UHGV virus genome: UHGV-1601610
DNA length: 16,533 nt
DNA from: a virus
Reading direction: 5' to 3' (one strand)
The stretch's first letter is position 1, and each line of letters begins with the position of its first letter. Positions 3,480 to 8,044 of this stretch are shown here, in pieces. The notes under the pieces were generated by a model. It was not told the origin of the DNA. It made no database searches and saw nothing but the letters and a program-made list of their open reading frames with translations. The position numbers and the translations under genes are program-made.

Positions 3480-6400
3480 TACCGATATGCTCCACTTAAC
3501 CGACCACCATCACGGGCCTGCTGTTGCATAAAGTCCGCTGCCGCTTTTTTCCCGAGGTCATAAACCGCCTTCAGGGCAGCCGGACCTATCTGCCCGTTCG
3601 TGCCATCGTTATTGATCTCGATGTTGTACTGCGGGGAAAACATCGCCATACCTGACCCCCCAATATCCGCCACAACCCCCAGCTTACCGTCAGCACCACG
3701 ACGCAATGGCAGAATGGCTTCAGGTCCCGCTTCCCCCATCACACCCGCGCCTTTTGCAAAAGCAAAAAACGTCGGACGGTTAACCACCGTGCCACTGTAA
3801 CGACTCAAATCAGCAGACTGATAAATCCCCCCATTGGCATTCAGGGAAAGGCTGCTGAGATCAAATCCCAGTACACTGCCAATCCCTTTTATCGATTTCA
3901 TCATGGTTGCCTGCGCCAGGATTTTCGCCATATCTGACAGCACAGAAGAGGTGAAGGATTTGAAATTGAGTTTGCCGGTAGTGACAAAAGTTGCCAGGCC
4001 ATTTCCCATGTTGCTGAAGGCTGACGAGAACACCTGTTCTGCTGTTTCTGCCGTATTATCTGCATCCACGGTAAAATCCTGAAATGCACGCAGGACTCCG
4101 TTTTTCCAGTTACCCTGCACAACTTCAAGCTGTTGCCAGTAACGGCGATTCTCATTCAGTTGTCGGTTCAGGCTCTCCGTCAGCGCCTGCTCGGCCTTTC
4201 TGTAGTCATCCGTGTTATATGTCCCTTTCTGCTCACTATCCCGCCTCAACTGCTCCAGCTGTTGCTGGTATTTCTGGCGAAGACTCAGTTGTACCTGATA
4301 TCGCTGTCGCTGCTGATCACCCATACCCACCGTGGCGATATCCAGGTCATGTTGCTGACGCTGAGCGCGCTCTTCTTCAGCCAGTTGACTGGTCAGCTGA
4401 ATTGTTTTTTTCTTCAGCTCGTTGAGTGCCGTCTGTTTCTGAAGCTCCTGCTGTTTTACATCCAGCAGCGTCAGTGCCTGAATCAGTTCATCTTTACGGG
4501 CCAGCACACTCTTTTCATCTGCCGTCAGTTTTTTCCCGTCCAGGTCGCTGATGCGCTGCTGCAGAGCCAGAAGCTGTTTATGCGCTTCTGTCATCCTTTC
4601 CGTGGCAATGCCTGCTGACTGTCTGGCAGCAGCAATCTGTCCTTCCACCTGTGCCTGTTGCTGACTGTACTGCAGCAATAACCGGGTGGCCTCATCATTA
4701 CGGGTTTCGCGTGTTTTTTTCTTACCGGATGCCAGGGCTTTCTCGTAACGTTCATTTTCACGTTGTATCGCCGCATCCCTGACAGCCTGATCGGCGTACT
4801 GCATGGCATTAATACGCGCAATTTCACGCTGATGTCGTGCTGCTTCCGTTTCATTCATCCGGTTCAGTGCAGCATTTTCAGCATTACGGCGTTTCTGTTG
4901 CTCCTGATAATTCCGCTCTGCCTGCTCTTTTGCATCCTGCAAATCCTTCTGGCGTTTTTTCTCCTGAAGATCGTTAAGACGCTGCTGATCGTATTCAACC
5001 TGAGAAGATGATGCCGTCCAGGGGAGTCTTTTCGCCCGCGACACTTTCTCCTGTAAAGCGGCAATCTGTTCATCCAGCGAGTCTTCACGACCAATATTCA
5101 TGGCCGCATCCCAGAAACGACTCCACAAATCAGACAGATACTTCAGCGTACTGCCAAGCGCATTGAGGTTATTATCAATATCCGCAGTACGCCGACCGGT
5201 TTCCTCTGCCAGTGCAGACATGGCTATCCGTGCAGCATCACTGGACCGCCCCTGCTCCCCAAGGACGCGTATCTGCTCAAGCTGAGTGGCAGTAAGAAAA
5301 TGCAGCTCATTGTCCAGAGCCTTCGCGGCATTTACAGGATCATCCTTCAGCCGCTTAAACTGATTTATGGTATCGCTGACCGACTGGCCAACCGATCGCT
5401 CCATCTGTGCGGCAACTCTCGCCACCATACCGATATCGTTTCCACGAAATGCACCACTCCCCACCACCTGAGCCAGCGCACCGGCTGCAGCATGTTGCGT
5501 GATACCATTCCCGGAAATAGCACGACTGAGCGTCCACAGCTGCCCGGCAGTGACTCCGGCATAATGCCCCGTCAGCGACAACTGGCGGTTAAATTCTTCC
5601 CCCTCCTTCTGACCGTCATACCAGGCTTTACCCAGACCATAGACGGCCGCGGCAATACCGCCAATAACCCCGCCAAGCATCATGCCTTTCGGTGACATCA
5701 GTGTGTCTATCCATCCGGCACGGTTAGCCAGCGTTATCCCGGATCCCCTCAGCGCCCCTAAATTGCCGCGGGCCAGTTCACCTATCAGAACGCCTATCTC
5801 CTGGCGGGCTGCTGCACTTTTCAGACCCAGCGAATGCGTGGCTTTTCCTGCCTGCTCCATTTTGCGGATATACACTTCTGCAGCACTGCTTACCCCCAGC
5901 TGGGCTGCCTTAGCACGAAGCAACTCAGAAGATGAAAGATTCAGGCGGGTTGCCTGCTCTTTAAGCTGACGGATAAACGCCACTTTCTGTCGGGTAGCCT
6001 CTTCCTCAGCCTGTGTAAGAACACGGGTTTTCGCAGTAACCTCAGAAATCAGCGCCAGATAATCCTGCTGACCAATCCCGCCACTGTTTCTGGCCTGTCG
6101 GATCTGCTGCTGAATACGCTGTAATTCCTGCAGCCCCGCACTGGCCTGTTTCACACTGTCAATCTGACGATAAAACGCAGCAGCCGCTTTATCCTGAGCC
6201 TCCGCCAGAGCCATGGCCTGCGCCTGTTCCTCGCGCATTTTCTGGCTCAGTGCCTCCATGCGCTGGCGGGTTTTCTCCACCTCGCGGGCCATGCGTTCAT
6301 GAGCCTGTGCGTTCTTCTCCACCGTCTGCGCATGGACGGATGCGGCTGTTGCAGCCGAAGAAGCTGCCTGCGTTGTCTGCCGGGCGGCCTGAGTCTGACG

Positions 6401-6544: not shown

Positions 6545-7243
6545 AACGCACACCTCCGGAAATACCTTCCCCAAGATGCATCAGTTCTTCGTCCGTTCGC
6601 TCCGGTATCCCGTTCTCTTCCGGTAAAAGGCTGAAATCAGCCACCGCAGCATCACTGCTGCCGGACACCATTCTCACGATCAATGCCTTCAGCGAGGCAA
6701 ACTGCGCATCCATCCACACATCACTGAAGCTCTGCATCCGGAAATAATCGCCCCACTCACCAAGCTCAGTGGCCGACATTTCCGACAGCATCCGCCGCCA
6801 GTCTGCCCGCCGGAACTCCCGGGCAAGCCGCATGACAAACTGCATTTCCCGCGTCAGGACTTTTCCGGCGTCAGCGCCTCATGCTCATCATCCACGGCAT
6901 TATCAATGGCCCCCATACCGCTCAGCGACAGAACCATCTCCGCCCCCGCACCCAGGGCATCATACGACCATGTTGTAATAACGGATGCGCAAAGCGTCTC
7001 TACATCCTTAGACTGATCCGCATTCCACAGTGAGCGGGAAACCAGCCAGGCATTGATATCCATCCCCATCCGCAGAAAAGCAATCTGTCGTTCAGCCTCC
7101 GGCAGTTCTCCCTCCCCGGCATCAAACTTTGCCGTTCGCTGCTGAACAAACGTCAGATATTCAATTCTCTGCAGCCCGGACAGCTCACTGAGCACCACGG
7201 ACTGTTTTTCATAATTAAACGTGTCCTGTTTCAGAAACATCAT
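6516..7243 (-). CDS. T: Tail assembly chaperone G-T fusion made by programmed -1 frameshift near the 3' end of G (lambda gpGT-like)
   Basis: The T ORF (6516-6845) lies in the -1 frame relative to G. Upstream of the T ATG the -1 frame is open only back to about 6878 (a TGA blocks it), so the shift must occur within ~22 nt before the G stop. That window contains GGAAAAG (minus strand, about 6860-6866). Conserved G-T arrangement of long-tailed phages. Confidence 0.6.
6854..7243 (-). CDS. G: Tail assembly chaperone G (lambda gpG-like)
   Basis: ORF-track ORF 6854-7282; start moved to ATGATG at 7238-7243 with GGTGGAG SD, because the longer 5' extension would translate through the terminator-like hairpin. 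N-terminus MMFLKQDTF... compares with lambda gpG MFLKTESFEH... Confidence 0.8.
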   Translation of the reverse strand: MMFLKQDTFNYEKQSVVLSELSGLQRIEYLTFVQQRTAKFDAGEGELPEAERQIAFLRMGMDINAWLVSRSLWNADQSKDVETLCASVITTWSYDALGAGAEMVLSLSGMGAIDNAVDDEHEALTPEKS

Positions 7244-7256
7244 GTTCTCCACCTGC

Positions 7257-7280
7257 AAAAAAGCCCCGAATAACCGGGGC
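7257..7280 (-). terminator. Intrinsic-terminator-like hairpin between V and G (GCCCCG guuauu CGGGGC + UUUUUU)
   Basis: Minus-strand read: 6-bp GC stem, 6-nt loop, then a run of 6 U, immediately followed by the SD and ATG of G. Probably a partial terminator, since the downstream tail genes must still be transcribed. Confidence 0.5.
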
Positions 7281-7300
7281 AAATGATGAGTATCGTCCTG

Positions 7301-8044
7301 TTAACCTGCTGCGCTGACAGTCACCGCAGTCACAGCCACAAAATTCCCGTCAGCGGTCATGCCCACAATGCTGACACTGCCCTGCTTCACGCCTTTTACC
7401 GTGGCCACAAGTCCGTTCAGGGTAACCGTGGCAGTCTGTGGATCTGACGAATGCACACTGATCGCTTTGTCACTGGCTCCGTCAGGTTTTACTGTAAAGG
7501 TCAGCGTGGTGGTTGCTCCCACTTTTACACTGGCAGACGCCGGTGATACTGTCAGCCCGGTAACGCTCACGGTTTCAGTGCCTTCCTCTGCCAGATACGG
7601 ACGCCCCACACCGCTGATTTTCACAGTGCGGGTCATCACGTCTTTTGAGGCAATGGTTTTACCCAGTGAGCTCAGCCAGCCACGGAAAACATCAACAGTG
7701 CCGTTGGGATATTTGATACGAAACGCGCAGACTTCACCGGAGTCGAACAACTGAACCAGTTTTTTCTGCCCGCTGTCACCCGGACGCCAGGCCAGCGTCG
7801 CCGAAGTATCACCAACGGATTTCTGCCCCTGGGTTGTCGTTTTCCAGTCTGCATCTTCATCATCGAGATAAGTGTCATCTTCTGCATCAGCGGTCATTTC
7901 GCCAGGTTGCAGATCCTTCACCATCGCAAGACGCAGCCAGTCAGTGTCCGACAAAGGGTTCGCAAACGCATCGCCGTTGCCGGTATACATCCAGAACGTC
8001 GTCCCCGCACCTTTCGTCTTTGCCAGTGGATTTGGTGTGGTCAT
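7301..8044 (-). CDS. V: Major tail protein V (lambda gpV-like, C-terminal Ig-like domain)
   Basis: ORF-track ORF 7301-8119; start moved to ATG 8042-8044 with AAGGAGGTG SD, giving MTTPNPLAKTKGAGTTFWMYTGNGDAFANPLSDTDW... (lambda gpV: [20 protein letters not shown]...). 247 aa. C-terminal ~90 aa is T/V/S-rich, consistent with a Big_2-type domain. Confidence 0.9.
   Translation of the reverse strand: MTTPNPLAKTKGAGTTFWMYTGNGDAFANPLSDTDWLRLAMVKDLQPGEMTADAEDDTYLDDEDADWKTTTQGQKSVGDTSATLAWRPGDSGQKKLVQLFDSGEVCAFRIKYPNGTVDVFRGWLSSLGKTIASKDVMTRTVKISGVGRPYLAEEGTETVSVTGLTVSPASASVKVGATTTLTFTVKPDGASDKAISVHSSDPQTATVTLNGLVATVKGVKQGSVSIVGMTADGNFVAVTAVTVSAAG

Follow-up and report, generated by a model that had tools for sequence, protein, structure and literature searches.

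Hairpins in the late operons of described phages

The P22-like phage L carries a predicted intrinsic terminator within its late operon, after the procapsid module/coat gene, and the authors who described it noted that it is not the only intra-operon terminator of its kind and that the roles of these elements are not known (Zaworski, Casjens, Raleigh et al. 2021; PMC8022706). Two such roles were proposed, namely partial termination, or the stopping of spurious transcription that is not antiterminated (PMC8022706). Phage operons can be tuned by weak terminators, for which T7 is the model case (PMC9163698). There, the inefficient terminator T-phi lies right after the major capsid gene 10, and read-through feeds the genes downstream.

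Elements of this kind have been noted in lambdoid late operons since 2000. For instance, the N15 record (NC_001901) lists stem-loops as 'putative rho-indep. transcription terminator' after genes 7 (D), 8 (E), 13 (V) and 20 (I), with canonical U-tracts at the D-E and I-J junctions and none at E-FI and V-G. The V-G hairpin of N15, CGGGGC-GCGA-GCCCCG followed by UUCCCCCC, lies 4 nt past the stop codon and is without a U-tract. In the case of lambda, GC hairpins occupy the only long spacers of the late operon, with a canonical element at D-E, a UUCG-looped one at E-FI, and at I-J the hairpin AAACCGCC-UGCG-GGCGGUUU UGUCAUUUAUGGAG, which is nearly identical to positions 1109-1130 of the DNA analysed here.

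That DNA is a 16,533-nt stretch of viral sequence (the window, meaning the stretch as a whole), and the locus of interest is the spacer between V, the major tail tube gene, and G, the tail assembly chaperone gene. N15 and the window are alike in having hairpins after the capsid gene, after V and before J, although the V-G stem of N15 is unrelated to, or inverted relative to, that of the window. Lambda is less similar, with a V-G spacer of 15 nt that holds no hairpin and head genes that are not homologous to the ClpP-capsid fusion of the window. Phage L shares with the window a predicted intrinsic terminator within a Q-type antiterminated late operon, but it is a podovirus, the junction is a different one, and the sequences are unrelated. 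T-phi differs in that it acts on T7 RNA polymerase with no antitermination factor and has been demonstrated experimentally, whereas the V-G element is known from sequence.

The closest counterparts are found in phages that are almost the same as the one studied here. In the V-G region the window shares 99.9% identity with phage mEp460_ev081, and 96-98% with mEp460, cdtI, Ayreon and others. A 'rho-independent terminator' is annotated in mEp460 (JQ182728) at 8751-8774, in the V-G spacer, where its 24 nt (GCCCCGGTTATTCGGGGCTTTTTT) are the very ones found in the window, and a second one at 6334-6353 corresponds to the first post-capsid hairpin of the window (9678-9697). Ayreon (MF807953) has annotated terminators at the V-G, post-capsid and I-J positions. 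These elements show no structural difference from those of the window, and they are in silico annotations, as is the case here. The V-G junction is also present in prophages of about a third of complete E. coli genomes (1,835 of 5,426). The V-G element is thus real and probably functional but ordinary, having been annotated already in near-identical phages, and it is a correct, unsurprising feature at the level of annotation. What is modestly new is that the hairpin, rather than the U-tract, is by sequence comparison the conserved feature of V-G junctions. A literature search for direct transcript evidence on the intra-operon hairpins of lambda, N15 or mEp460 found none; a Term-seq data set for EHEC Sakai is public (PMC7547250), and the closely related O157:H7 strain TW14359 has the junction, with 97% identity, at 917379-917579 of NC_013008. 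The small RNA sRNA-17 of E. coli K1, from an mEp460-like prophage (PMC7719688), lies in an intergenic region of more than 1 kb and is unrelated to the V-G site.

The V-G element and other hairpins of the window

The window holds 17 genes, all on the minus strand and arranged as a lambda-type late operon in the order Nu1, A, W, portal, ClpP-protease/capsid fusion, cement (DUF2190 / Phage_cement_2), FII-like, Z, U and V, followed by G, T, H, M, L, K, I and the start of J. Pfam identified V, G, T, U, Z, the cement gene and the ClpP-capsid fusion, while the identities of H, M, L, K, I and J come from the mEp460 annotation; between them, these sources bear out the first-pass annotation, which had placed G, T, H, M, L, K, I and J downstream of V in the same operon. 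V (7301-8044, minus strand, 247 aa) is an intact ORF with its TAA stop at 7303-7301, carries a lambda-type tail tube domain (PF16461, E = 6.5e-67) and a C-terminal Ig-like Big_2 domain (PF02368), and is named 'major tail protein' in both mEp460 and Ayreon. G (6854-7243, minus strand; PF06894, E = 3.8e-40) starts at the ATG at 7243-7241 or at an adjoining ATG at 7240-7238, the latter giving the MFLK N-terminus found in relatives. The spacer between the V stop and the first of these codons is 57 nt, one more than had been counted at first. Only two other spacers in the operon are long, capsid-cement (86 nt) and I-J (60 nt), all the rest being 13 nt or shorter; within the co-directional block from G to J, spacers do not exceed 9 nt except at I-J. 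A scan of the window returned no promoter-like site in the V-G spacer, and the arrangement at this junction is accordingly the one expected of an intra-operon attenuator, with required genes downstream and no promoter between. Over the whole window, sigma-70 promoter-like sites are depleted (3 versus 11.2 +/- 3.9 expected) and terminator-like consensus sites are in excess (34 versus 14.9 +/- 5.1 in shuffles).

On the minus strand, which is the coding strand, the V-G element (7280-7257) reads GCCCCGGUUAUUCGGGGCUUUUUU and is predicted to fold as GCCCCGG-UUAU-UCGGGGC followed by six U residues. The stem has six G-C pairs (7280-7275 with 7268-7263), and G7274 and U7269 may form a seventh, G.U pair that would leave a UUAU tetraloop, in which case the hairpin (7263-7280) has its 5' arm at 7280-7274, its loop at 7273-7270 and its 3' arm at 7269-7263. 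The original description of a 6-bp stem and a 6-nt loop at this place in the V-G spacer is therefore a fair minimal one. The U6 tract read from the sequence at 7257-7262 abuts the stem, and has five to seven U residues in all close relatives. It ends 3 nt from the Shine-Dalgarno-like sequence of G, AGGUGGAG (7247-7254, minus strand, likewise read from sequence), and so just before the G ribosome-binding site, as had been noted. The fold has a predicted energy of -13.8 kcal/mol and makes up 78% of the ensemble (RNAfold); only 1 of 200 shuffles of the 28-mer was as stable (z = -3.4), and the z-score of the MFE fold of the whole spacer is -1.2. A ribosome terminating on V would not cover the stem, which begins 20 nt downstream of the stop codon, so the hairpin can form co-transcriptionally.

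The V-G element thus combines a GC stem-loop within the usual limits for intrinsic terminators (a stem of about 5-14 bp and a loop of 3-8 nt), a U-run within 0-2 nt of the stem, and a non-coding site past the stop codon and beyond the ribosome footprint, and by these classical sequence criteria it reads as a bona fide intrinsic-terminator motif. Its d'Aubenton-Carafa score is +28 in the window and +41 for the commoner variant with C at 7269, where these scores, and those given below, are approximate.

The site ranks first in a consensus terminator scan of the window. All three long spacers hold strong hairpins, and together these spacers, at 1.2% of the window, contain 3 of its 21 strongest minus-strand hairpins (binomial P = 0.002). 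Hairpin energy alone is unexceptional, with several palindromes in coding regions being stronger than the V-G hairpin, and it is the hairpin, U-tract and intergenic position together that make V-G distinctive. A bidirectional or plus-strand terminator was considered and rejected, as the plus strand reads as the hairpin followed by CAAAUGAUG, without a U-tract, and the 54-aa plus-strand ORF at 7283-7447 is antisense to V. An Rfam scan of the whole window returned no family at gathering score, and the V-G hairpin is not a REP/BIME element.

The capsid-cement spacer contains two hairpins. The first, GGCCC-GUAA-GGGCU at 9684-9697 within the element at 9677-9697 (minus strand), is a canonical terminator motif that starts 23 nt after the capsid stop (9723-9721) and scores +23 on the approximate d'Aubenton-Carafa scale. 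Its run of seven U residues spans 9684-9678, the first U closing the stem, so that the hairpin and U-run reported at 9677-9697 are indeed present but position 9677 is a G. The second, CAGCCCC-UGAAC-GGGGCUG at 9648-9666 (minus strand), was also correctly located; it has no U-tract, folds at -13.2 kcal/mol, and ends 3 nt before the GGAG Shine-Dalgarno sequence of the cement gene (ATG at 9634-9632). Fels-1 retains the first hairpin, U-tract included, while its second has been replaced. Such a tandem of a terminator-type and a non-terminator hairpin suggests two different jobs.

The third long spacer (1088-1147, with J starting at 1087) contains a hairpin absent from the first-pass annotation, (GAA)ACCGCC-UCCG-GGCGGU(UUU) followed by GUCGUUUAUGGAG, at 1109-1130 on the minus strand, with an approximate d'Aubenton-Carafa score of +11; in Ayreon it is annotated as a terminator. 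The strongest hairpin with a U-run in the window is elsewhere, at 11511-11536 on the minus strand (an 11-bp stem of -17 kcal/mol, then UUUUUAAU), where the ClpP-protease domain is encoded (peptide ...SPGGDVFEGIAIFNAL...). Phages mEp460 and Ayreon have it unchanged and Fels-1 lacks it; the consensus terminator scan did not list it, and it is probably a coincidence of the coding sequence that would be masked by translation. The J coding sequence likewise contains a near-perfect 25-nt palindrome at 833-857, GCCGGAGG...CCTCCGGC, which folds at about -15.5 kcal/mol on either strand.

V-G junctions among lambda-like phages

V-G junctions were gathered by homology to the G protein from named phages, IMG/VR and GTDB genomes, giving 256 loci that resolve into 75 distinct junctions of two classes. 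In class A (9 distinct junctions), the spacers are 3-23 nt long and contain no hairpin, the best fold being -4.9 kcal/mol; members include lambda (15 nt), phi80 (10 nt), VT1-Sakai (13 nt) and many Enterobacter prophages. Lambda, phi80 and the Stx phages have the same V-G-T-H operon as the window, with spacers of 9-15 nt. In class B, the spacers are 34-77 nt long, and all 66 distinct junctions have a GC hairpin of -11.1 kcal/mol or better, so that the long spacer seems to exist for holding a hairpin. A length of 30 nt divides the two classes, with a hairpin in every spacer at or above it and in none below. For Symbiopectobacterium the score was taken from the second hairpin, and the Serratia junction, with a spacer of 236 nt, falls outside the survey. 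An IMG/VR search with the Symbiopectobacterium G protein gave no match.

The hairpins themselves fall into several types. The mEp460-type, to which the window belongs, is GCCCCGG-UUAU-YCGGGGC followed by five to seven U residues. The same stem is found in Fels-1 and Citrobacter with a CU loop, followed by UUUGCGGG, and in Gifsy-like phages with a UU loop, followed by UUCUAUGG. In N15-like phages and their relatives the arrangement is CGGGGC-loop-GCCCCG, then UUCC or CUUUC, with loops of GCGA, GAAA, GUGA, GCAA, GUAA, UUCG, UCCG or UGUG. Other junctions have GGGGGC-GUGA-GCCCCC then UUAC (Atlantibacter), AGCCACAC-ACCG-GUGUGGCU then U6 (Buttiauxella), or AAGCAGCG...CGCUGCUU with a second hairpin, then U7 (Symbiopectobacterium and Serratia). 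Unrelated stems thus occupy the same V-G site in Buttiauxella, Symbiopectobacterium, Serratia, Atlantibacter and N15-like phages, and stable GNRA or UUCG tetraloops are frequent in the hairpins of these other lineages.

The U-tract is far less widespread than the hairpin. At least five U residues within 8 nt after the stem are found in 20 of the 66 class B junctions, which are those of the mEp460-type and Buttiauxella, and are missing from the remaining 46; overall, a U-tract beside the hairpin occurs only in the mEp460-type lineage and two small lineages. The approximate d'Aubenton-Carafa scores are correspondingly negative, at about -3 for the Fels-1 and Gifsy-like junctions and -11 for N15.

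The window phage and Fels-1 share 76% identity in V and about 55% in G. Across the V-G spacer, nothing but the two stem arms can be aligned between the window and Fels-1 or Gifsy-like phages, and these arms form the sole conserved island. Taking mEp460, Fels-1 and Gifsy-like phages together, the arms are kept in 147 loci (31 haplotypes), save for changes of G-C to G.U. Position 7269 is a C in most relatives, giving a perfect 7-bp stem, and in the 80 IMG/VR loci closest to the window the stem changes only at this position (C, U or G) and in one basal G-C pair, which becomes G.U. No compensatory changes were found within lineages, whether in the mEp460/Fels-1/Gifsy-like superlineage or in N15-like phages, where the stem is also invariant, and the stems of other lineages are too different to be aligned as homologues in a covariation test. 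The evidence for selection on the hairpin therefore consists of its conservation and positional recurrence.

Two minor observations were made in the course of the survey. In the Serratia marcescens junction, about 160 nt of structured extra sequence lies between the two V-G hairpins that are adjacent in Symbiopectobacterium, and this may be a small insertion or mobile element. In addition, short, low-coverage GTDB contigs (L119-L131) carry the lambda G region, which matches the query at 32% identity, just as lambda's own G does. Their source assemblies are assigned to Neobacillus, Oceanobacillus, Pseudomonas, Kitasatospora, Shewanella, Leeuwenhoekiella and other unrelated organisms, and this region is most likely lambda DNA contamination or spike-in.

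Candidate roles of the V-G hairpin

The first-pass annotation took the V-G element for a partial terminator, by which the V transcript would be made much more abundant than those of the minor tail genes. Part of this proposal stands: the motif is canonical, and with essential tail genes further along the operon the element cannot stop transcription completely. The canonical features also suggest that unmodified E. coli RNA polymerase would be stopped here with useful efficiency. However, intrinsic terminators throughout the late operon are ignored by Q-loaded RNA polymerase, and since a Q antiterminator is encoded by mEp460 (gp050 matches Pfam PF03589, E = 1e-53), attenuation at V-G during lytic growth is likely to be modest. 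Sister lineages with the identical stem have either lost the U-tract or never gained it, which weighs against partial termination as well. As for V abundance, the placement of hairpins after the capsid and tail tube genes fits, but lambda-type phages manage without one at V-G, and the I-J hairpin follows a low-copy gene, an ill fit with the logic of boosting an abundant protein. Moreover, RNA 3' ends mapping to the U-tract, which had been suggested as a test, would not be decisive, because termination and processing with exonuclease trimming both give them.

Protection of the mRNA 3' end, and a backstop against stray transcription, are equally as live as partial termination. The absence of a usable U-tract from Fels-1, Gifsy-like and N15-like junctions suggests that selection keeps the hairpin and not termination, and the 46 of 66 hairpin junctions without a U-tract, with their negative scores, point to a role at the RNA level that is independent of the U-tract. 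Retention of a hairpin while the U-tract comes and goes would be unexpected for a terminator or insulator, and expected for a hairpin that acts in the RNA. The best reading, held tentatively and with somewhat less than even confidence, is of a dual-purpose 3'-end hairpin in which a barrier to mRNA decay is the conserved function and a terminator was added in the lineage of the window.

Under this dual-purpose reading, the V-G element would be an RNA hairpin kept by selection where the V cistron ends, one of a set found in lambda-like phages after the structural genes needed in greatest amount (decoration, capsid and tail tube) and before J. Its conserved job would be to fix and shield a 3' end for the portion of the late mRNA up to and including V. 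An endonucleolytic cut in the single-stranded, U/A-rich spacer, or a minority of termination events, would be the trigger, after which 3'-to-5' exonucleases would stall at the GC stem, and the RNA ending after V would outlast the G-T-H-M-L-K-I-J part. The U6 tract would make the hairpin of the window lineage an intrinsic terminator as well, directed against polymerase without Q, such as that engaged in leaky or spurious transcription in the lysogen, while Q-modified lytic transcription would be trimmed at V-G in at most a modest fraction of cases. The net outcome would be a modest step-down in mRNA after V that adds to translational control and is not the main determinant of stoichiometry.

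Intercistronic hairpins are known to stabilise the upstream segment of an mRNA, as in the malE-malF REP of malEFG and in Rhodobacter puf. The likeness lies in a stable stem-loop at the 3' end of a more expressed upstream cistron, for which a U-tract is not needed; the V-G hairpin differs from that type in that it is not a REP, has no Rfam match and carries U6. As with such stabilising hairpins, it is located at the 3' end of the more-required cistron and is conserved independently of the U-tract. Against a decay barrier, RNase R and PNPase are only moderately hindered by a hairpin of 6-7 bp, and the I-J hairpin, coming after low-copy genes, is unexplained by protection of an abundant message. 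Other points argue against a large effect. The V-G element must be dispensable for V:G stoichiometry, and its effect not essential, because lambda, phi80 and the Stx phages have no hairpin here. Lambda late-gene ratios are, in addition, reportedly set mainly by translation initiation (Sampson et al. 1988, PNAS), which argues for a small effect of such hairpins.

A broader version of the dual-purpose reading, in which the V-G hairpin belongs to a widespread, U-tract-independent class of 'cistron-end' hairpins of lambda-like phages (after D, E and V, and before J, with frequent GNRA or UUCG loops) with a primarily post-transcriptional role, is conceivable but doubtful. Were it true, the hairpins would set segmental mRNA stability along an antiterminated transcript of 20 kb, or give rise from it to sRNAs or stable 3' fragments by processing; the terminator-like appearance would be secondary in the window lineage, and differential mRNA decay, beyond termination or translation by themselves, would contribute to virion stoichiometry. 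If the hairpin does shape the ratio of V to G-T-H mRNA, a transcript-level layer would be added to the translation-initiation view of lambda-type stoichiometry, and a small question left by phage genomicists would be answered (PMC8022706). Whether these hairpins terminate, stabilise or insulate matters for the reading of prophage transcriptomes and for the engineering of lambda-like tails.

A pure attenuator, where a fixed fraction of polymerases stops at U6 even in lytic growth and V mRNA substantially exceeds that of G-T-H...J, is rather unlikely. It draws on the canonical hairpin with U6 and its positive terminator score, on a U-run held at 5-7 in all relatives of the window lineage, and on the possibility of co-transcriptional folding beyond the terminating ribosome; canonical terminators are, furthermore, found after the capsid gene in the window and Fels-1 and after D in lambda and N15, and partial termination is one of the roles proposed for phage L (PMC8022706), with T7 as precedent (PMC9163698). 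Set against these points are the expected suppression of such terminators by Q antitermination, the same stem without a usable U-tract in sister lineages, and the absence of the element from lambda-type phages.

It is more doubtful still that the hairpin serves as a backstop or insulator, with little lytic effect, that stops Q-less polymerases arising by leak-through at tR' or from internal starts in the lysogen and so limits costly or harmful expression of prophage tail genes. This is the other role proposed by the phage L authors (PMC8022706), and it agrees with the Q gene of mEp460, with a mostly lysogenic state as implied by carriage in the 1,835 of 5,426 E. coli genomes, and with the presence of several terminators along the operon, including one before J that protein abundance does not explain. 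The conserved hairpins without U-tracts in N15-like, Fels-1, Gifsy-like and Atlantibacter junctions would, however, be poor terminators for any polymerase, the hairpins follow D, E and V specifically rather than arbitrary junctions, and promoter-like sites inside the operon are few (3, versus 11 expected).

Least probable, and by some distance, is the lack of any RNA function, whether as a neutral relic, a DNA-level feature such as a mosaic recombination joint, or a means of local uncoupling of V and G translation: for all that covariation is missing within lineages, lambda-type phages dispense with the element, lambdoid genomes are mosaic and lineages with differing flanks have the identical stem, unrelated stems recur at the V-G site in several lineages, stable tetraloops and strand-specific U-tracts indicate RNA rather than DNA, and V (76%) and G (about 55%) have diverged on both sides, so that this is not an obvious point of exchange. 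In the case of uncoupling, the G Shine-Dalgarno sequence of short-spacer junctions lies within about 10 nt of the V stop, where translational coupling is possible, and the hairpin junctions separate the two. A further translational effect, masking of the G Shine-Dalgarno sequence, was rejected, since the G.U-rich helix of UCAUUU with AGGUGG that would be responsible is worth only about 2 kcal/mol and is not conserved, being lost in a Shigella-type variant. The G start codon itself is ambiguous, given the two adjacent ATGs of the window (7238-7243, MMFLK...), the MFLK start of relatives in other lineages, and a variant (L095) that is without the second ATG.
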